A stretch of 54,360 nucleotides of DNA, from UHGV virus genome UHGV-1841366. One strand, written 5' to 3'. Positions 2,446 to 54,360 of this stretch are shown piece by piece; position 1 is the stretch's first letter, and each line of letters opens with the position of its first letter. The DNA comes from a virus. Both the position numbers and the translations under genes were made by a program. The notes under the pieces are model-generated. The model had not been told where the DNA came from, made no database searches, and worked only from the letters and a program-made list of their open reading frames with translations.

Positions 2446-2560
2446 GAGTGAGGCCACCAGCACGGTGGCTTTTTGCTGTTTGCAACCTCCGGGGCAGCGC
2501 AGCGCCGTAACGCTATGCTTTGTAGCCTTTTTCTTACTGGTATTATTTACGCCATTGAGA

Positions 2561-2573
2561 AAACAAGTTGTTT
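2561..2573. promoter_or_regulatory. palindromic motif AAACAA-N-TTGTTT (copy 3)
   Basis: Perfect inverted repeat followed by ACGGAG and the ATG at 2585. Confidence 0.5.
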
Positions 2574-2584
2574 ACGGAGTTGTG

Positions 2585-2899
2585 ATGAAAAAATCATTGG
2601 TTCTTGGTCTGGACAAAGACCAGAAGAGAAAAGAGAAGCCTGCACTGGTTGCTCAATTAACTTTGCTGGACATCGTTGCCAATGGAACCTCTATTCGTCT
2701 GTTCCGTGAAACAGCGGTGTCTTTCGATAAAAACACCTTTACTCGTTATGTAATGAATGTTCGTCGCCAGCGTGGAAAAGGCTGGGTGGCATTTCAAAGA
2801 ATGTGGCCTGCACATCAGCTCGAGCTGGCTTTGATGGAAGTAAACCGCGTGGCCCAGCAAGAAATTCAGAGAGCATCAGTGATGGCAACAGCCTGGTAA
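2585..2899 (+). CDS. hypothetical protein
   Basis: In-frame internal start of ORF 2249..2899 (begins MKKSLVLGL); chosen because motif plus GGAG sit directly upstream and the longer N-terminus overlaps gene 2227..2445. Terminator follows. Confidence 0.55.
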   Translation: MKKSLVLGLDKDQKRKEKPALVAQLTLLDIVANGTSIRLFRETAVSFDKNTFTRYVMNVRRQRGKGWVAFQRMWPAHQLELALMEVNRVAQQEIQRASVMATAW

Positions 2900-2931
2900 T
2901 GTGCAAGTGGTAATTAGTCGACAGTACGACA

Positions 2932-2958
2932 GCCCCGACGTCCTTACGGGGCTTTTTT
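2932..2958 (+). terminator. rho-independent terminator
   Basis: GCCCCG / CGGGGC stem with 9-nt loop followed by TTTTTT. Confidence 0.7.
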
Positions 2959-3022
2959 GTATTGTAAGCACATACCTACGATCATAGAATAGAAAAATAA
3001 CTAATACACTACGGAGAGTGAA

Positions 3023-3418
3023 ATGACCGTTAAACGCGAAAAACTGACAGTTGATGTTTACTATGCCTCTGAAACCGCCGAAGGTAAGAATGTGGCAAAA
3101 ATTACCGTTGTTACGTACAACACCGAAACTGGTGCCGAAGTACAGGCCAGTACGATCGTGCGTAAAGGTGATGCCTCCGGCGGCGAGTACGCGACTCAAT
3201 ACCAGTCCATTCTCGATGCAACTGACCCGCTGCTGCTGAAAATCGAGAACTACTTCCGCCAGGTTGATGAAGAGGTGTTTGAAACCATGATGAATATGGT
3301 TAATTCCGTATTCACCTCCAGCCTGAACACCCGCACTACCTGGATTGGTCAGTACGGTCTGCGTATTACCTCCGGCATTCCTGCTGACACCTTAATCCCT
3401 GAAAGCGTATTCGCTTAA
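3023..3418 (+). CDS. hypothetical protein
   Basis: ORF track; ACGGAGAG upstream of the ATG; terminator downstream. Confidence 0.55.
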   Translation: MTVKREKLTVDVYYASETAEGKNVAKITVVTYNTETGAEVQASTIVRKGDASGGEYATQYQSILDATDPLLLKIENYFRQVDEEVFETMMNMVNSVFTSSLNTRTTWIGQYGLRITSGIPADTLIPESVFA

Positions 3419-4104: not shown

Positions 4105-4221
4105 TTCTGGTGACAGGATTACTCCTGTCAGGGCTGTTTCTTTTGTTACAGACGCTATCATGAAGACAAAAAGAGAAGGAAGATCACTGATAGGTCTGGG
4201 AGTTACTTCAGTTTTAAAAAT

Positions 4222-4278
4222 GCCTGCTTCCGTATATATAAATAATAAGTAACTTAATAAATATATACGGAAGCAGGC
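4222..4278. repeat. long AT-rich-loop hairpin, copy A of three
   Basis: GCCTGCTTCCGTATATAT ... ATATATACGGAAGCAGGC; near-identical copies at 19067-19122 and 47623-47669. Confidence 0.7.
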
Positions 4279-6216: not shown

Positions 6217-7143
6217 ATGAAACCAGTATTTTTGGGGCGAATTGATATTAGTGAATTGTTTTCAGTTAGAGATGGGTTCCAATATGACTGTGATTGCCTT
6301 GAACTTAATGGTCTTGAACGTGAATACAGATTGGCTATTGTGAATGATGGTAAGAAGACATTTTCTGTCGAATGTTTTGAAAATACTTACTTTAAGCAGG
6401 TGTTGAGAATAAGACAGCATGTGGAGATGTCAATTCGGGAAAACATCAAAAATAAATGTGAGTTTCTTGTGGTTAAAAATGAAGCAGATGAAATAAACTT
6501 TGTTACGTTCACTGATAGTGGTCGATTGGCTATGCTGGAGCTATTTCAGCTGATCGTTTCTAATAACAGTATAACAGAAGCCTTGAACAGTCTTTCAACT
6601 ATAGTATCAAGAGAAAGAGAAAACACTGGCGCTTTAATTGTAGAGGAGCTAGATGGAATACTCGAGAAGATCAAGAATAAAGAGCTGATTATAGAATATG
6701 GCAAGGAAAGTAGGAAAAATAATTTACATTCAGCTTTTCACTCCCCATATGTTGAGCGTTTGAATGGTTTGGCTGCTTTTGTTAATTTGGACTTTAATAG
6801 ATTTTTTAGTTCTTTTTTTACAGAGTGTGGGCTTGTTATTGTTGAGGTAAATAATGAGAACGATGTCCCCAAAATTATAGTACATTCGATGCCTGATATA
6901 TCTCTCAATGAAATTGGGGACAAACTGGAGAATTTATACGATGTAAAAAGCATGGAAGAACTCATAGAGTATCTGGCCATAAATGCGGTAGCCATGGCTG
7001 ATAATGATGTGTTTGGGGTTGGTGCACTGCATGAAGGTTTTCTTGACGCCCTTGAGCTTTACGGGACTGCTCGCTGGTTTCTGTCAGGATTAGTGGATGA
7101 TGCACCTTTACTCATCAATACAGATTATTTTTATTCCAGTTGA
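6217..7143 (+). CDS. hypothetical protein
   Basis: In-frame ATG (MKPVFLGRI) of ORF 6070..7143 preceded by GAGGAATTAAAA; the upstream part of the ORF lies in the duplicated leader. AT-rich. Confidence 0.5.
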   Translation: MKPVFLGRIDISELFSVRDGFQYDCDCLELNGLEREYRLAIVNDGKKTFSVECFENTYFKQVLRIRQHVEMSIRENIKNKCEFLVVKNEADEINFVTFTDSGRLAMLELFQLIVSNNSITEALNSLSTIVSRERENTGALIVEELDGILEKIKNKELIIEYGKESRKNNLHSAFHSPYVERLNGLAAFVNLDFNRFFSSFFTECGLVIVEVNNENDVPKIIVHSMPDISLNEIGDKLENLYDVKSMEELIEYLAINAVAMADNDVFGVGALHEGFLDALELYGTARWFLSGLVDDAPLLINTDYFYSS

Positions 7144-8675: not shown

Positions 8676-8696
8676 GCTTTAAAAACTCCTTTAAAT

Positions 8697-8714
8697 GCGC
8701 CCATATTTGGGCGC
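8697..8714. repeat. 18-bp palindrome GCGCCCATATTTGGGCGC (copy 1)
   Basis: Identical 18-mer at 9451-9468; each lies just downstream of a minus-strand gene stop. Confidence 0.6.
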
Positions 8715-8729
8715 ATGATTTATATGGTA

Positions 8730-9377: not shown

Positions 9378-9450
9378 ATTAAATTCCTCAATTAAAATCT
9401 GAACCAGATGAATAAAGCTAATATTAGCTTTATTCCGAGTTTTATCTCAT

Positions 9451-9468
9451 GCGCCCATATTTGGGCGC
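9451..9468. repeat. 18-bp palindrome GCGCCCATATTTGGGCGC (copy 2)
   Basis: Identical to 8697-8714; a 24-bp perfect palindrome AATAAAGCTAATATTAGCTTTATT lies next to it at 9409-9432. Confidence 0.6.
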
Positions 9469-9481
9469 TTGATTCCATTAA

Positions 9482-10132: not shown

Positions 10133-10423
10133 GATTTCAATCCTTAGATCAAATTAGAAAATTTATTTCGTTCTATCGTTAGCGTGTTCGCTTTCGACGA
10201 GTTCAATTATCGATACGCAAAAAAAGATTGCAAGTGTTTTTTCTTAGTTTTTTACAGGGACGAAAGTCCTAGAAATAAAAGCGAGATCGTCGAAGGTGTT
10301 CCCTAAATAAATAATCTACTCCGGCTTTTAACCTTATATATTTATACGGAGTGGAATAGGGGGTATTAAATGAATGGCGTGTAAAATAATAACCGGACTT
10401 AGCCGGTTATTACCCTTATAGAT

Positions 10424-10987
10424 TTAAAATGGAAGGATTCGGTCAACCCAATCGAAGAGAACAATCATTCTTGCATGTTCCCTGATTTTCATCGTCACCT
10501 GACAAGCATCAACGCCTAACGACACTCCCTCTATTTCACGGCCATCCGCCATGTAGACCCTTATAGATCTGCCGTTTTGATGAGCTTTGCGACATATCTT
10601 AAAAAAGTCACGACGTGATGGCTGGTTGTTCACGTAGTCAGGATGTACGGTAAGCCTGTCCGCAAAGTCCCCATCTACTTCTGGAGGTATAATCGTTTCT
10701 ATAGAGCTAACTTTCCCAAGAGGAAGACGAACTCGACGCTCTTTGCTTCTTGGAACGGGTGATAGATCAAGTTTGTTGCGTGATGGTAGTGTTCCCTGTA
10801 CATACATGTTGAATACCTGTCCATCTTCCATCGTGACTTTTACAGGAACAGAGTGTGCCCTCCAGAACATCAAGGTATGTTCCACATTAGAATAGTCTCG
10901 CGGCCATACTTCAGCCGGTATGCCGTATGTAATATCTTTCGTCGTCATATCATTATAAAGTGGTTGGCAATATGTCCATTGTACCAT
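10424..10987 (-). CDS. hypothetical protein
   Basis: ORF track, 187 aa; overlaps the upstream lipoprotein gene by 35 nt, so the true start may be the internal ATG at 10948; no clear ribosome-binding site for either. Confidence 0.4.
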   Translation of the reverse strand: MVQWTYCQPLYNDMTTKDITYGIPAEVWPRDYSNVEHTLMFWRAHSVPVKVTMEDGQVFNMYVQGTLPSRNKLDLSPVPRSKERRVRLPLGKVSSIETIIPPEVDGDFADRLTVHPDYVNNQPSRRDFFKICRKAHQNGRSIRVYMADGREIEGVSLGVDACQVTMKIREHARMIVLFDWVDRILPF

Positions 10988-11372
10988 CCCAGGTAGTGAA
11001 AACCCGATATGTTTTCGAGTCGCCCTGCTTTAGCTTTATTTCTCGTTCCATCCTGGAGGGGTTAAATGCGCAAAGACCTGAACTTTCAATTGATGTCCCA
11101 ACGATCCACTCTCCTTCGTTAAGGTAGAAAGTTGCTTTTTCACCAGGTTCTAGCTTTGCAACCGTTTCTCCATTGATGAAAATGGAAGCGTTACATGCAG
11201 AACCAACCAGCCCTTTGTCTCGAACTATTGTTAAACTAGACTCATGTGGTGTTTGATATTTAAATATTCTGCTTTGAGGTGCATCCTTTGCCTTTGAAAC
11301 AGATATAGACGAAGACGAACATCCAATTAGTGATGTGGTTAGTGTTAGAATAATTAGGTTTGTTACTTTCAT
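10953..11372 (-). CDS. putative lipoprotein
   Basis: N-terminus MKVTNLIILTLTTSLIGCSSSS: hydrophobic signal plus lipobox-like LIGC. Confidence 0.55.
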   Translation of the reverse strand: MKVTNLIILTLTTSLIGCSSSSISVSKAKDAPQSRIFKYQTPHESSLTIVRDKGLVGSACNASIFINGETVAKLEPGEKATFYLNEGEWIVGTSIESSGLCAFNPSRMEREIKLKQGDSKTYRVFTTWDGTMDILPTTL

Positions 11373-11388
11373 ATTTGTCTGACTATGA

Positions 11389-11940
11389 TTAATAGTTAAC
11401 TTGGGTTCTGTTGTAAATGTCTATTAAGAAATCGTCCTGCTTTATGTTTTTACAGGTTTTGTCGAAGGTTAATTCACCTGATAATATGCAGGCGTTGTAT
11501 TTTTCGATAAAAATATTTAATGCCTGCCAATTTTTGAAAAGAAAAGAGAAACCATATGACGACTCGCTGCCGTTTATCAACCCTCGTGCGCTGGGATATT
11601 TGTATAAATTTGAATGTAGCTCTAATTTACCAGGGGCAACGTCGCCACAGGAATTCATAATGACGAACATTTTGGATATATCAAAAGGATAAAAAACTAT
11701 GCCGCAATTTGTCCTGTTGCCTTTAATATCCTTCACGTAAATATAGTGCTCGTAACAATCTTTACGCGAGGCATTTAACCTGTATTGTATTAGTTTGTGC
11801 TCTCCTTTTTGAGAGGGTATTAGGTATCGTGTACGCTTGTCTAAGCAGGATTTCGTCTTTGTACGGTATTGCGACATACTGCTCTTTATTTCCGCTGCAC
11901 TTAGAAAGTTCTCATTAAAAGGCAAATGTCCCATTTGCAC
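11389..11940 (-). CDS. hypothetical protein, homologous to the N-terminal domain of the HNH protein
   Basis: 183 aa; SYGFSFLFKNWQALNIFIEKYNACILSGELT aligns with GYSFAFKNRLSIEMFLITLIDYIDSGKIS of 12186..13166, and GIVFYPFDISK with GICVTPQKIEK. Confidence 0.5.
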   Translation of the reverse strand: MQMGHLPFNENFLSAAEIKSSMSQYRTKTKSCLDKRTRYLIPSQKGEHKLIQYRLNASRKDCYEHYIYVKDIKGNRTNCGIVFYPFDISKMFVIMNSCGDVAPGKLELHSNLYKYPSARGLINGSESSYGFSFLFKNWQALNIFIEKYNACILSGELTFDKTCKNIKQDDFLIDIYNRTQVNY

Positions 11941-11978
11941 CTCCGGTTCTTAAGCATAGATAAGCCTACAAAATTAAT

Positions 11979-12045
11979 TCAGTCGATCAAGATCTTTTTT
12001 CAGCCGGAAGTTTATGTATCAAGAAGTGTGATCAAGTTCACATAC
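11979..12045. repeat. intergenic repeat R2 containing TGTGA-N6-TCACA
   Basis: About 80 percent identical to 13217-13285; palindrome TGTGATCAAGTTCACA at 12027-12042. Confidence 0.55.
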
Positions 12046-12185
12046 TGCTTTGCCAGAAGAATACCATATGCAAAACATTCTATTGCTGTTAAAATTTAAT
12101 CGTTCAGACATAAGGAAGCCCTATACCCTCGACAAATCTTTCTGGTATTGTCGAGGGCATGTTTCACATTTATAGGTAGATAGCG

Positions 12186-13166
12186 TTAATTGGTGTTTTT
12201 GTTCTTCTCTTTTTTGCTAATTTCATCACATGTAAGGTTCATTATGTCTATGTTTTCTTGCTTTTGAAGGTTGCCGACAATTTTTTTGCGCAATTCATAA
12301 AATCGCTCGCGTGGTATAGCTTCCTTGTTGCCGTTGATGTGAAGTATTGCGTGACAGCTAGGGCAGACGGCAATCAGATCTGTTTTTGGGTTCACGCTTC
12401 GTGCATCTTCGCCTTGTGAAAGTGGGACGATGTGGTGAGCGTGTAGCAGCGTTTTCGTTTCTTTGCCGTCAATTTCCTTGCCGTATATTTCCGACATCGT
12501 TCTGCAACATAATTGACACCTGTAGTCTGCGTTTGCCAGAACGTCATTCCTTAACCCGGATACGCGGCTACGATGTTGCGACTGGATTAATCTTGTTTCG
12601 CCCTCTATATATTCCTCAACTTCTTCTTTCTGGAGGTCGTAGCTGATTTCTTCTTGAGTCGGATGGACTTTTTTGTATAGAAGATCAAGATATTTAATGT
12701 CCTCTGTTATATATTTGGAATCCTCTAGCGAGGATATTTTTCCTGAGTCTATGTAGTCAATTAATGTAATAAGGAACATCTCTATCGATAGCCTGTTTTT
12801 AAAGGCAAACGAATATCCAAGATGTCTTCTATCTCCTGAATGAATTGGCGTCCAATGAGATTTCTCAATTTTTTGTGGTGTTACGCAGATACCTTTGCCG
12901 ATATTGTTTACATGTTCCAATAATTGATAAACAGAATTAATGCGGTAAGCATGTGTTACTAAAGAATTTATTTTTCTTGTGCCGACGGAGGATTTTGTCA
13001 TAACAACATGATGAGATATTTGTTTTTTTAAAATCAAATCATACGATGTAGCTTTTTGGTTTTCGCCTTTGTCGGTTTTTTTTATTAAATTTAGTTTTTT
13101 ATTAGAGGCTATTTTCTCTATTTCTTCTCTAACTTCTTTTATCGTCATGTAAGTTTCTTTTGTCAT
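12186..13166 (-). CDS. HNH endonuclease with N-terminal domain of unknown function
   Basis: 326 aa; C-terminal HNH-type motif (CQLCC ... HAHHIVPLSQGEDARSVNPKTDLIAVCPSCHAILH); AT-rich. Confidence 0.6.
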   Translation of the reverse strand: MTKETYMTIKEVREEIEKIASNKKLNLIKKTDKGENQKATSYDLILKKQISHHVVMTKSSVGTRKINSLVTHAYRINSVYQLLEHVNNIGKGICVTPQKIEKSHWTPIHSGDRRHLGYSFAFKNRLSIEMFLITLIDYIDSGKISSLEDSKYITEDIKYLDLLYKKVHPTQEEISYDLQKEEVEEYIEGETRLIQSQHRSRVSGLRNDVLANADYRCQLCCRTMSEIYGKEIDGKETKTLLHAHHIVPLSQGEDARSVNPKTDLIAVCPSCHAILHINGNKEAIPRERFYELRKKIVGNLQKQENIDIMNLTCDEISKKEKNKNTN

Positions 13167-13216
13167 TATAATTCGACCTACTGGAATATCTTGATTTAAG
13201 AGGCTACAAATATCGT

Positions 13217-13285
13217 TCAGCCAATCAAGAAATTTTTTCAGCCGGAGGTTTGTACTTCAAAAAATGTGATGAATGTCACATGCAG
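13217..13285. repeat. intergenic repeat R1 containing TGTGA-N6-TCACA
   Basis: Palindrome TGTGATGAATGTCACA at 13265-13280; adjacent 10-bp perfect inverted repeat CATGCAGGTG/CACCTGCATG at 13279-13306. Confidence 0.55.
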
Positions 13286-13313
13286 GTGCGCTCATACACC
13301 TGCATGTAGACTA

Positions 13314-13913
13314 TTAATCATTCAATAATCTATATTTGCTTTTGATTAAATCTTCACCTTTTCTGGTGAACACAAAACCAAATTGCGATTTTTTGTTCAG
13401 TCGAAGAACTCTGTTATCCAGTGCATCGGTTGACGGAATTAGTGTCTGATCATCTATCCAATTTAGTAGCGTAAGAAAGTTCAGCAACCTCAACGTTGTT
13501 GTGCGAAGCTCTTTCGATATATTTTCAATGCTGGCAATTCGTCTTTCTTTTTTCTTTGGCGTTTCGATTAACTTCGCTTGAGAGGTGGACAATGAATAGA
13601 TATTTTCATTGTCCTCATCAAACAACAGATGTTGGGTAAGTTTGCTAAAAAAACCTCGTGCGGATTCGCTTGATAACACTCCCTCTTTATTCATATCATT
13701 AGTTATTCTGTACAAGAGTGGACCGTACTTCATTTCAGGATAACGTTGATAAAAGTTAAGTAATTCAAAAGCAGCATTAGCACCAACAAGAAAATCAGAA
13801 GGATCGCTGACCTTCCAGAAAGAATGATTTTTCTTAGCGCCTGTGGTGTCAACAAATGATAATTCTTTTAAACAACTCATGATGTACTCCTTTCTAACAA
13901 GTGAGCACATCAT
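13314..13913 (-). CDS. hypothetical protein
   Basis: ORF track, 199 aa (an internal ATG at 13881 is an alternative start); no confident domain. Confidence 0.45.
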   Translation of the reverse strand: MMCSLVRKEYIMSCLKELSFVDTTGAKKNHSFWKVSDPSDFLVGANAAFELLNFYQRYPEMKYGPLLYRITNDMNKEGVLSSESARGFFSKLTQHLLFDEDNENIYSLSTSQAKLIETPKKKERRIASIENISKELRTTTLRLLNFLTLLNWIDDQTLIPSTDALDNRVLRLNKKSQFGFVFTRKGEDLIKSKYRLLND

Positions 13914-13945
13914 AGAATTGGTGGATAGGGGGTAAATATGGAACG

Positions 13946-14224
13946 TTACGGCAACCTGCTCAGTATTTCCTCCAGATCTTCTTTGGTCATATTAGAGTTC
14001 TCATAAATACGCATAATTTTCTCACGAGTCTTAGCAGAGACTCCAACGGCAGATGAAACTTTGTCAAATTCAGCCATTGTCATTGTCTCCAGAATGGCAT
14101 TGATAACTTCAGCCTTAGACATTTTGATATTTTTTTCTTTTAGTTTCACTTGAAACTTTCCAAGTTTGTCATTGGCCTTATCCGACAATGACACCTGACA
14201 ATAAGTTGTTTTCTTTTCGCTCAT
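13946..14224 (-). CDS. hypothetical small protein
   Basis: ORF track, 92 aa; stop-start tightly coupled to the helicase gene (2-nt gap). Confidence 0.45.
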   Translation of the reverse strand: MSEKKTTYCQVSLSDKANDKLGKFQVKLKEKNIKMSKAEVINAILETMTMAEFDKVSSAVGVSAKTREKIMRIYENSNMTKEDLEEILSRLP

Positions 14225-14226
14225 AA

Positions 14227-15786
14227 CTAATCTCGTTTCAGAACTCCAAAATCGAATGTGCCATCAATTGGCAATACACCTTCTGCAAAGCCAGGTGTGG
14301 TGTCGATGATGTGTTTTCGCTCATAAGAGTGAGACAACAGGTATTTGTTGCTAATGTCAATGAAATCAGTGATAAAACACACGTTTGCCTGATTTTTTTT
14401 TGCTCGTAAGCCACGACCGACACGCTGTCTCATTTCAACTTCTGCTTTCCCACCACCAGCAAGAATGACCGCGCCCACGCTTGGCACATCAACACCGACA
14501 TCCAGAATAGTCGAGCCTATTAAAACATCTATTTCGCCAGACGCTAAACTGTTCAGCTTTGCTTGCCTTGTCGTCTGGTTCGATTCCCCATAGATGAAGT
14601 CAACTCTAAGGCCGGACTCTTTCATCATCTCCATCAGGATTTGCCCGTGGCGTTTAAGACGAACCAGAGTCATGCAGTTGAGAGAATGTTGCTTATAGAG
14701 CAATGCTTCTCGTACTATGGCCTCGTTTCGTCCCAAATTATACACGATCCCCAACTGATAAGCTTTTTGGTAGGCAGTGCTCATACCTACCCTAAAATTG
14801 AGGTGTTTGTTGGCAAGTTCTGCCTTGATTCTGACCTCGTCTGGTTTGTAGGCAACTTTATGATAAAGGAAATATGGCTTTGCCAGAATACCTCTATCAA
14901 TCAGGTATTTTTCTGTAACTTTAATTTCAATTCGCCCGGCCACAGCCATCAGACGCATGTTGGCTTCTGTAGAAGCCTTCATGAACGGCGTTGCCGTAAG
15001 CGCCAGGCGATAGTCTGCGTTCGTACATAATCTGGCAATGTCATAGAAATTAGAGCCTGAAGACTCATGCGCCTCTTCCAGAATAAGAAGAGAGACACTT
15101 GAAAGGAAGCGCTTCACTAACTCCTGACGTTTGAGGTGGTAGCTCTTCTTATCTGGTGTTGCATCGCGTGGTGGTTCTTCGAGGAAACTTGCAATAGTTT
15201 GAACTGTAGCGACGTTGATATGTCGTGATACCTGAAACTCACCCGAGCCAATGATTCCAACCTTTTGGTCTTTTAACCACGGTTCGCCATTTTTGGCGCG
15301 GTAGTCGATGGATCTCTGGAAGTTTTCGGCCATCTGAAACATCAGAACAGATCGGGTTGTTAAAAATAATGTCATTCGACCGATACGTGCAGCTGCTTTG
15401 CAGGCAACGTTAGATTTCCCACCACCAGTAGCGATCTGCGCAATCATCATTCCCTCGCGAACCAGTGTTTCCACAGTCTGATCCTGATACGCATAATCAG
15501 GATTGTATGGGAATGGGTTAACCGCCGGATTTGGCTTTCCAAGCGCCGGGGCTTTGTCTTTGCGGATATGAACACATTTGATGCCCGCCTTGTTCAAGTT
15601 CGCCGCTACAGGCTTGGCAAAGCCAGCAGGGAACGAGTTTTTACTCCAGTGGAACATCGTGCTTGTGCCCTTCCAGTCGCCAGTGTCGACTTCGTAGCTC
15701 AACATCTGTTGCACCAGTTGCTTTACCTTGTCATCTGCGCCAGAAATAAGCGCATTTACTGCGTTAGATACAATCCGAACAGTCAT
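14227..15786 (-). CDS. SF2 DEAD/DEAH-type helicase
   Basis: 519 aa; Walker A ATGGGKS, motif II LEEAH, motif III LTATP, motif VI QRVGRGLR. Confidence 0.65.
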   Translation of the reverse strand: MTVRIVSNAVNALISGADDKVKQLVQQMLSYEVDTGDWKGTSTMFHWSKNSFPAGFAKPVAANLNKAGIKCVHIRKDKAPALGKPNPAVNPFPYNPDYAYQDQTVETLVREGMMIAQIATGGGKSNVACKAAARIGRMTLFLTTRSVLMFQMAENFQRSIDYRAKNGEPWLKDQKVGIIGSGEFQVSRHINVATVQTIASFLEEPPRDATPDKKSYHLKRQELVKRFLSSVSLLILEEAHESSGSNFYDIARLCTNADYRLALTATPFMKASTEANMRLMAVAGRIEIKVTEKYLIDRGILAKPYFLYHKVAYKPDEVRIKAELANKHLNFRVGMSTAYQKAYQLGIVYNLGRNEAIVREALLYKQHSLNCMTLVRLKRHGQILMEMMKESGLRVDFIYGESNQTTRQAKLNSLASGEIDVLIGSTILDVGVDVPSVGAVILAGGGKAEVEMRQRVGRGLRAKKNQANVCFITDFIDISNKYLLSHSYERKHIIDTTPGFAEGVLPIDGTFDFGVLKRD

Positions 15787-15868
15787 AAACCTCTTTCCTT
15801 AGTGCCTTTTGTATGTTATTTGGCTATTATAATAAGTAAGCAATTACTTAGTGGATTGTAGCAATAAA

Positions 15869-19042: not shown

Positions 19043-19066
19043 TCGGTCTGGGAGCTTATTTAAAGA

Positions 19067-19122
19067 CCTGCTTCTGTATATATAAATAATAAGTAACTTA
19101 ATAAATATATACGGAAGCAGGC
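19067..19122. repeat. long AT-rich-loop hairpin, copy B
   Basis: CCTGCTTCTGTATATATAAATAATAAGTAACTTAATAAATATATACGGAAGCAGG; one stem mismatch relative to copy A. Confidence 0.7.
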
Positions 19123-19185
19123 TTAATAAGACATGCCCAGATTCAATTAAACACACCAGTAAACAAGTTGGTTAATAGATGCAGT

Positions 19186-19198
19186 AAACAAGTTGTTT
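19186..19198. promoter_or_regulatory. palindromic motif AAACAA-N-TTGTTT (copy upstream of terS)
   Basis: Perfect copy; variant copy at 19161-19173; followed by palindrome GAGCGC-ATGGAC-GCGCTC and the ATG at 19239. Confidence 0.5.
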
Positions 19199-19238
19199 TA
19201 GAGCGCATGGACGCGCTCTATGTGTTTTAGAGGGATCT

Positions 19239-40695: not shown

Positions 40696-40788
40696 TAGTA
40701 GAAAAAAAAATTTATATCGGTAAAAATAAGTAGGTATTTACTTTGTGGTGGGCAAGAATAGCCCACCAAAACAAGGAGCATATTCAAC

Positions 40789-46456: not shown

Positions 46457-46516
46457 AACCTACCATTTAACCTTTACACCGCAGCCGTAGGCATTTAGGC
46501 TATATCACATATAAGA

Positions 46517-46529
46517 AAACAAGTTGTTT
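46517..46529. promoter_or_regulatory. palindromic motif AAACAA-N-TTGTTT (copy upstream of parA)
   Basis: Perfect copy 36 nt upstream of the parA start. Confidence 0.5.
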
Positions 46530-47592: not shown

Positions 47593-47622
47593 CAACTTCC
47601 GGTCTGGCAGCTTCAATCAGAA

Positions 47623-47669
47623 CCTGTTTCTGTATATAAATAATAAGTAACTTATTAAATATATATATA
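47623..47669. repeat. long AT-rich-loop hairpin, copy C
   Basis: CCTGTTTCTGTATATAAATAATAAGTAACTTATTAAATATATATATACGGAAGCAGG; shorter and more diverged than A and B. Confidence 0.65.
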
Positions 47670-47763
47670 CGGAAGCAGGTCTTTTAAAAGACACCCACCA
47701 GAACAACTCCCTTCCGTTTTCACTTCCAAAAACTGACACCAGTCGCTATCATCTGCTCATTGT

Positions 47764-48537: not shown

Positions 48538-48548
48538 CTAATACTAGA

Positions 48549-48561
48549 AAACAATTTGTTT
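48549..48561. promoter_or_regulatory. palindromic motif AAACAA-N-TTGTTT (copy upstream of helicase)
   Basis: Perfect copy 20 nt upstream of the ATG at 48581. Confidence 0.5.
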
Positions 48562-51184: not shown

Positions 51185-51260
51185 AATCGCACCTTTAAAA
51201 TAAGTAGATAGTCACTTATCTTTCTGTAAGAATAGTTTCATCTGTTAGCTAGGAGTTGGT

Positions 51261-52100: not shown

Positions 52101-52583
52101 ATGGCGATAGTTGTGAAAGCTGATTTGTCAAAAATCCCCTCTATTTCAGGAAATAATGGTTATTCACTTCGTTGTGAGGAAGTAAAGATAAACGGTGAGT
52201 CGGCATATTGCAGTTACTCCGTTTGCCAGCATACCATTCTTGCCTTCAAAGAAAACCGTCTTCCTCGAACTTCATTCCAGTCGTGCGCAACCGCTATCAA
52301 AGCAGGCAAATGCAAGGCGTTAAAAATGATGGTTGGAGAGATTCGTAAAGGAGAATCTCTGTATTTCGAAGATATGACCGCGCTCATTAAGGAGGTTGAA
52401 GAACGGAATAAACAAGCCAGAACTATAAAACGAAAACGTGACAGTGTAACGATTAATAGCATGGTTAAGAAGAGCACCACATCACAAACAGCGATCACTG
52501 ACGTGTATGCGGCGTTGCTTGAAGAAACAACAAAAGAAACACATGAGCAAATCGATCAACATATGGAGGCAAAACAACAATGA
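52101..52583 (+). CDS. hypothetical protein
   Basis: ORF track, 160 aa; four cysteines (C25, C37, C42, C62) could form a metal site. Confidence 0.45.
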   Translation: MAIVVKADLSKIPSISGNNGYSLRCEEVKINGESAYCSYSVCQHTILAFKENRLPRTSFQSCATAIKAGKCKALKMMVGEIRKGESLYFEDMTALIKEVEERNKQARTIKRKRDSVTINSMVKKSTTSQTAITDVYAALLEETTKETHEQIDQHMEAKQQ

Positions 52584-54113: not shown

Positions 54114-54188
54114 GATGGTGTAGCTCAGCGGCAGAGCAGTTGGCTGTTAACCAACTGGTCGGTGGTTCGAATCCACCCACCATCGCCA
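54114..54188 (+). tRNA. tRNA-Asn (anticodon GTT)
   Basis: Hand-folded cloverleaf: acceptor GATGGTG/CACCATC, D-stem GCTC/GAGC, anticodon stem GTTGG/CCAAC with loop CTGTTAA, T-arm GGTGG-TTCGAAT-CCACC, discriminator G, encoded CCA; 75 nt. Confidence 0.8.
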
Positions 54189-54193
54189 ATTTA

Positions 54194-54280
54194 GGGGAGT
54201 TAGTCCGTAGGGGTAGCGGGGTAGACTGTAAATCTACTGTCATTGCGACTCGGGTGGTTCGACTCCATCACTCCCCACCA
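54194..54280 (+). tRNA. tRNA-Tyr (anticodon GTA), long variable arm
   Basis: Acceptor GGGGAGT/ACTCCCC, anticodon stem GTAGA/TCTAC with loop CTGTAAA, 15-nt variable arm, T-loop TTCGACT, encoded CCA; 87 nt. Confidence 0.75.
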
Positions 54281-54284
54281 AATT

Positions 54285-54360
54285 GCCGGTTTAGCTCAGT
54301 TGGTAGAGCAGTCGCTTTGTAAGCGAATGGCCAGCGGTTCAAGTCCGTTAACCGGCACCA
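54285..54360 (+). tRNA. tRNA-Thr (anticodon TGT)
   Basis: Acceptor GCCGGTT/AACCGGC, D-arm TAGCTCAGTTGGTAGAGC, anticodon loop TTTGTAA, T-loop TTCAAGT, encoded CCA; 76 nt fits standard numbering; ends exactly at the window edge. Confidence 0.7.

Follow-up and report, generated by a model that had tools for sequence, protein, structure and literature searches.

A candidate CRP-controlled promoter module at the head of a variable gene slot in SSU5-like phage-plasmids

Among the CRP-dependent promoters of Escherichia coli, the class I promoter lacP1 and the co-dependent promoters araBAD and rhaBAD share a TGTGA/TCACA core that is inverted about a 6-bp spacer and flanked by A/T, and such sites lie upstream of sigma-70 promoters with imperfect hexamers. 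Here we describe an 81-nucleotide (nt) element with the same core, spacer, flank and position, again in an enterobacterial host, which occurs twice (copies R1 and R2) in UHGV virus genome UHGV-1841366. This stretch of 54,360 nt, hereafter the window, comes from an SSU5-like enterobacterial phage-plasmid, and its nearest relatives are the Escherichia phages Cyrano, PhiR41_1 and CMS-2020a (~108 kb) together with non-mobilizable E. coli plasmids of ~110 kb. Unlike the E. coli promoters, the element has its palindrome centred at about -78.5, carries a CCGGCTG block between the palindrome and the predicted -35 hexamer, resides on a phage-plasmid rather than a chromosome, and is a predicted rather than a characterized promoter. 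On balance we favour, with moderate confidence, the reading that it is a self-contained regulatory module in which a near-consensus CRP site and a promoter head a variable gene slot, and that it is present twice here through the joining of two cassettes.

The genes behind the module also recall two other described arrangements. As in the Pc/attI platform of integrons, variable genes stand behind a single conserved expression platform, with two units in a row in the window; in contrast to an integron, however, no integrase is annotated nearby, the cassettes have no attC-like site at their far end, and the second unit brings its own promoter copy across an illegitimate junction. Phage morons, as Hendrix and colleagues are said to have described them, are autonomous promoter-gene-terminator units between conserved phage genes. 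The slot likewise holds AT-rich accessory genes with their own predicted promoter between backbone genes, and its cargo is absent from related elements of Yersinia and Kluyvera, while a Buttiauxella relative is also without the module. Unlike morons, the promoter module is conserved and the gene behind it is exchanged, and the slot genes are distant homologues rather than unrelated genes. One of the two units, that of an HNH nuclease gene, ends at a hairpin borrowed from a neighbouring gene, and its promoter is a predicted one. Our literature search found nothing that links SSU5-like elements to CRP or describes this slot.

A conserved module at a single plasmid locus

A repeat search of the window returned an 81-nt family (D7) with two members, R2 and R1, which are 77% identical, and a profile built from both finds only these two places in the window (E ~1e-30). 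Each holds an exact TGTGA-N6-TCACA palindrome (Table 1). These are the only exact matches in the window, where 0.07 would be expected and 0 of 100 shuffles reach two; with one mismatch allowed just one further, unrelated site appears, as chance predicts, and the other blocks of the module occur nowhere else in the window. A preliminary description of this DNA had recognized a duplicated intergenic repeat with perfect palindromes, and the searches confirm it; the extents then proposed (13217-13285 and 11979-12045) were too short, the repeat reaching 16 nt further towards the genes.

All genes of this region lie on the minus strand. Read in that direction, a helicase gene (14227-15786), a gene for a 92-amino-acid (aa) protein and a 199-aa gene are followed by a hairpin (hairpin 1), R1 and a 326-aa HNH gene, and then, after a spacer of ~140 nt, by R2, a 181-aa gene, a 139-aa lipoprotein gene and a gene for an FljA-like regulator. 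From the end of R1 it is 35 nt to the start codon (ATG) of the HNH gene, and from the end of R2 ~28 nt to that of the 181-aa gene.

Table 1. Positions in the window of the two module copies, their parts and the adjoining features (RBS, ribosome-binding site).
Feature	Position	Strand	Evidence or remark
R1 module, heading the HNH gene	13201-13281	-	repeat search, profile, comparison
R1 palindrome, TGTGACATTCATCACA	13265-13280	-	
R1 gap of 19 nt, variable sequence, T6 first	13246-13264	-	T6 at 13259-13264
R1 invariant block CCGGCTG + A6	13233-13245	-	
R1 predicted -35, TTGATT	13223-13228	-	followed by 16-nt spacer
R1 predicted -10, TAGCCT	13201-13206	-	
R2 module, heading the 181-aa gene	11963-12043	-	repeat search, profile, comparison
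R2 palindrome, TGTGAACTTGATCACA	12027-12042	-	
R2 gap of 19 nt	12008-12026	-	CTTCTT in place of the T-run
R2 CCGGCTG + A6	11995-12007	-	
R2 predicted -35, TTGATC	11985-11990	-	
R2 predicted -10, TAGGCT	11963-11968	-	
Hairpin 1: CATGCAGGTG, 8-nt loop, CACCTGCATG	13279-13306	-	fold and covariation
199-aa gene (PHROG 13473), last of the helicase operon	13314-13913	-	conserved left neighbour of the module in most plasmids
Cargo 1, 326 aa: N-domain (~aa 1-175) and C-terminal HNH nuclease domain	12186-13166	-	Pfam HNH, E = 1.3e-4
Cargo 2, 181 aa: stand-alone member of the N-domain family	11389-11934	-	GGAGG RBS 5 nt before ATG 11934
139-aa lipoprotein gene	10953-11372	-	
FljA-like regulator gene	10424-10987	-	Pfam PF03614, E = 1e-70
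Non-homologous junction	12044-12052	.	
Relic CCAGAAGAATAC, last codons of a + strand lipoprotein gene (neighbour of the HNH gene in other plasmids)	12053-12064		
Terminator-type hairpin of that lipoprotein gene: CCCTCGACAA, 12-nt loop, TTGTCGAGGG	12126-12157		

Outside the window the module is restricted to this one locus. BLAST located it in 96 of 5426 complete E. coli genomes, one copy per genome and each on a plasmid; among the records listed these carriers measure ~105-240 kb, mostly ~105-117 kb. In PLSDB it is found on 172 plasmids (100 from Escherichia, 66 Klebsiella, 4 Salmonella, 1 Raoultella and 1 Enterobacter), and the profile from R1 and R2 detects exactly one module in each related locus that we fetched. 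Neither the 96 E. coli genomes nor the 172 PLSDB plasmids include a stacked pair such as that of the window. NZ_CP099878, the sole PLSDB record with two module places, was considered as such a pair and rejected, because an entire stretch of ~14 kb is repeated there with the same proteins. Relatives outside E. coli were found with the helicase as query. Those from Yersinia pestis, Kluyvera and Buttiauxella have no profile or palindrome match to the module, and the two inspected, from Yersinia pestis and Kluyvera, also lack the 199-aa gene and the cargo: in both, the helicase and 92-aa genes are followed directly by open reading frames of lipoprotein and regulator size (140-144 and 187 aa). The 199-aa protein, used as query against one genome per species, gave no match.

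The two-copy structure of the window is not an assembly artefact, because contigs of ENA ERZ1749178 and Logan SRR1761716 match this 4-kb region, both repeats included, at 100% identity. A metagenome record, OLHG01000923, also has two modules, 1238 nt apart, but at 19,401 nt it is exactly as long as the ENA contig and may be the same one. Two contigs labelled as Bacillota or 'Candidatus Fimivivens' metagenome-assembled genomes, JAEWTL010000044.1 (L036) and DALYYK010000001.1 (L034), carry the helicase region of an enterobacterial phage-plasmid at 81-92% protein identity, L036 with the module in addition; both were probably binned into the wrong genomes.

The module is defined through comparative conservation, for which we used 32 distinct copies; generic promoter and terminator scans do not flag it, and an Rfam search of 10300-14300 returned no RNA family. 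In this set the half-sites read TGTGA-N6-TCACA in 27 copies and CGTGA-N6-TCACA in three, with a right half-site of TCACG in one and TCAAG in another. The palindrome spacer is 6 bp long in all 32, in 13 different sequences, and a TT(T) flank is conserved after TCACA. Similarly, the gap from the palindrome to GGCTG keeps its length (19 nt to CCGGCTG) in 29 copies while its sequence varies freely, and the three exceptions have lost one copy of a short direct repeat (a 6-nt slippage deletion). Little or no variation is seen in CCGGCTG with its A-tract, in (T)CTTGAT, in part of GGCTGAA, and in TAG(G/C)CT. Indeed, R1 and R2 respect this pattern themselves, differing at 6 of the 49 columns that are invariant in other plasmids as against 13 of the 33 variable columns (Fisher p = 0.007).

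The palindrome carries the signature of a site for a dimeric DNA-binding protein and not that of a terminator stem, because its arms are fixed in sequence, its spacer is free and its distance from the predicted promoter is fixed. The contrast with hairpin 1 is instructive here. That hairpin stands directly 3' of the stop codon of the 199-aa gene, overlaps the R1 palindrome by 2 nt and lies outside the duplicated 81 nt; R2 has no upstream hairpin. Its fold reaches -24.9 kcal/mol (z -5.2), both sides change in four of its eight pairs across relatives in a 15-sequence alignment, and its position is occupied by at least five sequence versions, all of which keep a stem abutting the palindrome. It is likely the 3'-end structure, terminator or stabiliser, of the helicase operon. 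The palindrome arms, in the same alignment, show compensatory change in none of five pairs, and four of the five never vary.

We regard it as quite improbable that the palindrome acts as RNA, where it would combine with hairpin 1 and the T-run to terminate the helicase operon, with the R2 copy a recent carry-over. It is true that R1-type palindromes are preceded by a strong hairpin and followed by T5-6, that in lineage L005 the spacer adds to the stem, giving 7 bp and a 4-nt loop with U5 behind it, and that the stacking event is undated, so that the palindrome kept in R2 proves little alone. Yet the stem itself is weak, having 5-6 pairs of which two are G-C, with a fold of -4.7 kcal/mol (z -1.38) that 24 of 200 shuffles equal, and a generic terminator scan does not report it. 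The T-run, which the preliminary description had correctly seen after the R1 palindrome on the minus strand, reads CTTCTT in R2 and shrinks to 3-4 T (for example CTTT, ATTT or TTTC) in several other lineages. Furthermore, this explanation leaves unaccounted for both the constant 19-nt spacing to the promoter and the arms, which stay fixed without compensation while the adjoining hairpin turns over freely. The suggestion in that description that the palindrome might be only a terminator hairpin thus finds little in its favour, given the weak stem, the unconserved T-run and the missing compensatory changes.

A predicted CRP site and promoter

Host CRP is the most likely ligand of the palindrome, because it agrees with the CRP consensus in core, spacing (6 bp) and flank, the hosts are all Enterobacteriaceae, and the plasmid's own operator-like motif is different. 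The half-site arrangement had been identified as that of CRP at the outset, and the comparison bears this out: the core is exact in both copies, and against the 22-bp CRP consensus AAATGTGATCTAGATCACATTT we counted by hand 16 of 22 matches for R1, 17 of 22 for R2 and 19 of 22 for a Klebsiella copy (L044), the fit extending outside the core. The site is carried by Escherichia, Klebsiella, Salmonella, Raoultella and Enterobacter, all of which encode CRP.

Downstream of the palindrome, the best promoter reading is a predicted sigma-70 type, TTGATT, 16 nt and TAGGCT, with the A6 at the position of a proximal UP element. TTGATT-16-TAGGCT is nearly invariant in the 32 modules, and the -10 hexamer keeps T1, A2 and T6. 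Other promoters sought by eye were rejected. A class II arrangement and sigma-54, -32, -28 and -E motifs gave no candidate conserved across lineages, and a divergent antisense promoter (TAGACT-18-TATATT, or AATAAT at 13324-13329) is not conserved across lineages either. We also discarded an anti-Shine-Dalgarno role in which CCTCCGG of the module would pair with the CCGGAGG RBS of the 181-aa type: the two do pair in the minimum-energy fold, but this fold (-15.4 kcal/mol, z -0.41) is shuffle-like, and the idea is further weakened in that the block is kept regardless of the RBS of the cargo.

We infer from sequence that this is the promoter, that CRP is the protein bound and in which direction it acts, and several observations weigh against these inferences. 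The hexamers match the sigma-70 consensus at four of six positions (-35) and three of six (-10), seven of 12 together, and the predicted promoter falls below the threshold of a generic scan. The Salmonella copy has the degraded right half-site TCAAG. The site centre lies 66 nt from the first base of TAGGCT, which places it at about -78.5 in 29 of the 32 modules if TAGGCT is taken as -12 to -7. Known activating CRP sites are centred at -41.5, -61.5, -72.5, -82.5 and -92.5, and the predicted centre falls between the canonical class I positions -72.5 and -82.5; in the three deletion modules it would lie at about -72.5 to -74.5, and both geometries cannot be in phase. The invariant CCGGCTG block, which has no assigned function, could be the site of another factor, and the 199-aa protein, whose C-terminal region looks winged-helix-like in an alignment by eye, is a putative binding protein candidate. 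Given the non-canonical centre and the unexplained CCGGCTG block, simple class I activation cannot be taken as established, and CRP might act in a co-dependent arrangement or have some other role when bound.

Some of these points feed a different explanation, in which the palindrome would be bound by a regulator other than CRP, either plasmid-encoded (for example the 199-aa protein) or another host factor, and its match to CRP would be coincidence or mimicry. We consider this unlikely. The non-canonical -78.5 speaks for it, as do the place of the 199-aa gene, which adjoins the module on its left in most plasmids, and the winged-helix-like appearance of the conserved C-terminal part of its product. 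On the other hand, the palindrome fits CRP in its core, its 6-bp spacing and its TTT flank, up to 19 of 22 positions in the Klebsiella copy, and the hosts are without exception Enterobacteriaceae. Plasmids in which the 199-aa gene has been deleted or is missing (L005, L042) still keep the palindrome in exact or nearly exact form, and the 199-aa protein has no Pfam, NCBIfam or PDB match that would identify it as DNA-binding. It was also tried as a sigma factor and rejected, the NCBIfam hit (E = 0.015) reaching 14.7 bits against a cut-off of 173, with no Pfam or PDB-profile support.

The repeated operator-like motif of the plasmid differs from the palindrome too. This inverted repeat, GAAAACAA-N2-TGTTT (AAACAA-N2-TTGTTT), has 11 matches in the window against 0.23 expected and is absent from the slot. 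Its sites include 83-148, 814-828, 2008-2022, 2559-2575, 19184-19200, 46515-46529 and 48547-48561, it lies within the longer intergenic repeat families D4, D5, D8, D9 and D10, and the motif probably represents the binding sites of a plasmid-encoded regulator.

With CRP as the favoured ligand, the module would work as follows. Placed after the structured 3' end (hairpin 1) of the helicase operon, it would present, on the minus strand, (T/C)GTGA-N6-TCACA with its TTT, the 19-nt gap of free sequence, CCGGCTG with A6, and TTGATT-16-TAGGCT. The complex of cyclic AMP (cAMP) and CRP would occupy the palindrome and modulate, probably activate, the weak promoter, and slot expression would then track the carbon status of the host. 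The module would drive a gene of the N-domain family described below; many plasmids have the genes for the lipoprotein and the FljA-like regulator further downstream, and it would drive these as well.

Origin of the two copies

Each of the two units of the window is closer to a different plasmid than to the other unit. The part from 10426 to 12043, which comprises the regulator, lipoprotein and 181-aa genes and R2 up to the outer edge of its palindrome, is contiguous, at 80.6%, with the single-module plasmid NZ_CP126951 (L004). The part from 12053 to 12659 aligns at 96.2% identity with positions 2501-3108 of another single-module plasmid, NZ_CP027369 (L003); the lipoprotein coding sequence of L003 ends at 2512, so the aligned part starts with its last 12 nt and continues through its hairpin into the 3' half of its HNH gene. 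The R1 flank (13201-14300) is ~89% identical to all compared plasmids, L003 included. The window thus holds a pair of allelic cassettes, both of which brought a module with them, and illegitimate recombination between two plasmid lineages joined them at the 9-nt non-homologous junction: the units match different single-module plasmids, and the end of a foreign gene is left at the junction as a relic. The HNH cassette came from an NZ_CP027369-like plasmid, and the 181-aa cassette from an NZ_CP126951-like one.

These relationships contradict a tandem segmental duplication, as the preliminary description had proposed. Adjacent units in the same orientation whose proteins share a domain are indeed what an in-situ duplication of promoter and gene with later divergence would leave. 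However, identity is only 22% between the proteins, against 77% between the repeats, and each unit has closer relatives elsewhere (80.6% for the R2 unit; 96% for the 3' half of the HNH gene and 89% for the R1 flank). The 3'-end relic of a foreign gene between the units, and the lack of any stacked pair among the 96 E. coli genomes and 172 PLSDB plasmids, point the same way, and we judge a duplication very unlikely.

An equally slim chance attaches to the idea that the repeat is itself a cassette-exchange site, integron-like or of another site-specific kind, at whose edge the variable cargo begins for that reason. All cargo types do share a sharp boundary just past TAGGCT, and the stacking junction lies at most 9 nt from the R2 palindrome. 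Yet single-cassette plasmids carry one module and so do not flank their cassette on two sides, no recombinase is annotated in the neighbourhood, and the relic of an unrelated gene at the junction indicates illegitimate rather than site-specific joining. In addition, the cargo genes are distant homologues rather than unrelated genes, which fits ancient alleles under one conserved promoter.

Cargo of the slot and its possible role

Similarity between plasmids of different cargo type stops within a few bases after TAGGCT, and at least seven cargo types are seen behind the module. In all of them but one (the L028 type, with no N-domain gene identified), the first downstream gene belongs to one very divergent family. 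Its members are 20-35% identical between types; some stand alone, with 106-199 aa, and others, of 326 or 377 aa, carry an HNH nuclease as a fusion. The N-domain family is small: it forms seven clusters in a database of 5.8 billion proteins, and an exhaustive profile search among 1.84 billion proteins yielded six representatives, so that no deep alignment is possible. The cargo has a G+C content of 37% against 45% for the window.

Both genes behind the repeats of the window encode such a domain, as the preliminary description had stated; the 326-aa and 181-aa proteins are 22% identical across 167 aa (pairwise E = 9e-7), owing to a distantly related N-terminal domain that they share, and both match PHROG 31250. 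The 326-aa protein also matches PHROG HNH families and, in PADLOC, an HNH model as well as weakly type IV restriction models, and the best PDB sequence match of its HNH part is 6ghc, McrA (E = 0.0044). Single-sequence structure prediction of the HNH protein gave no usable model (predicted local distance difference test, pLDDT, 33). Its gene is a mosaic. The 3' half (12186-12659) is 96% identical to the HNH gene of NZ_CP027369, whereas the N-domain part (12660-13166) is a different allele, and the two proteins are 57% identical overall, a sign that domains have been swapped in this slot.

The 181-aa gene is followed, after 16 nt, by the lipoprotein gene and, overlapping it, the gene for the FljA-like regulator. 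These genes are probably co-transcribed from the predicted R2 promoter, because of this short distance and the gene overlap. In L001, at ~6240-6275, and at equivalent places in L003 and L006, a hairpin in the leader of one of the cargo types, CCTCCGAA-GAAA-TTCGGAGG, would sequester the RBS of the next ATG; in L001 and L006 the gene behind it looks like a remnant.

Other repeats of the window lie outside the slot. Family D2 consists of three ~61-nt palindromic copies, GCCTGCTTCCGTATATAT...ATATATACGGAAGCAGGC, at 4218-4278, 19062-19122 and 47616-47676. Family D6, with four 39-nt copies starting AAAATAAGTAGGTATTTACTT at 15829-15867, 40723-40761, 51197-51235 and 52149-52187, may be another promoter or operator family. 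A 26-nt hairpin, ATGCGCCCATATTTGGGCGC, is nearly identical at 8695-8720 and 9449-9474, downstream of neighbouring 215- and 216-aa genes, whose proteins show no detectable relatedness to each other. A cluster of tRNA genes (Asn-GTT, Tyr-GTA, Thr-TGT) occupies the right end of the window (54114-54360).

We hypothesize that the cargo has a role in exclusion or defence. McrA, a modification-dependent HNH restriction enzyme from the e14 prophage of E. coli (PDB 6GHC), has the same layout as the longer cargo protein, an N-terminal non-catalytic domain followed by a C-terminal HNH domain; unlike McrA, the cargo N-domain has no detectable similarity to that of McrA and belongs to a tiny family, and several slot genes come without a nuclease. 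The type I-F CRISPR-Cas system of Pectobacterium, shown experimentally to be under CRP-cAMP control (PMC4499141), offers a precedent for a defence-type function that a CRP site places under catabolite control. That system is chromosomal, whereas in the phage-plasmid both the defence role and the control by CRP are putative. A further, doubtful extension is that the module serves as a cAMP-CRP-gated expression socket for a rapidly diversifying family, in which a DNA-reading domain, alone or fused to HNH, would mediate McrA-like exclusion of modified phages or rival plasmids; exclusion would then be switched on under carbon limitation, and stacked cassettes, each arriving with a socket, could form arrays of different specificities.

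SSU5-like phage-plasmids are common in E. coli, Klebsiella and Salmonella, and the expression of their accessory genes is almost uncharted. The element itself is ordinary in kind, a transcription-factor site with a promoter. FljA is the repressor of phase-1 flagellin, and if the R2 promoter is controlled by CRP, its homologue here would give the plasmid a link to the regulation of flagella by cAMP. A sharply bounded variable locus with a tiny divergent family and an optional HNH fusion is, moreover, a reasonable candidate for phage or plasmid exclusion. The favoured reading predicts that the variable slot beside the helicase operon, and in many plasmids the FljA-like regulator too, should respond to cAMP.

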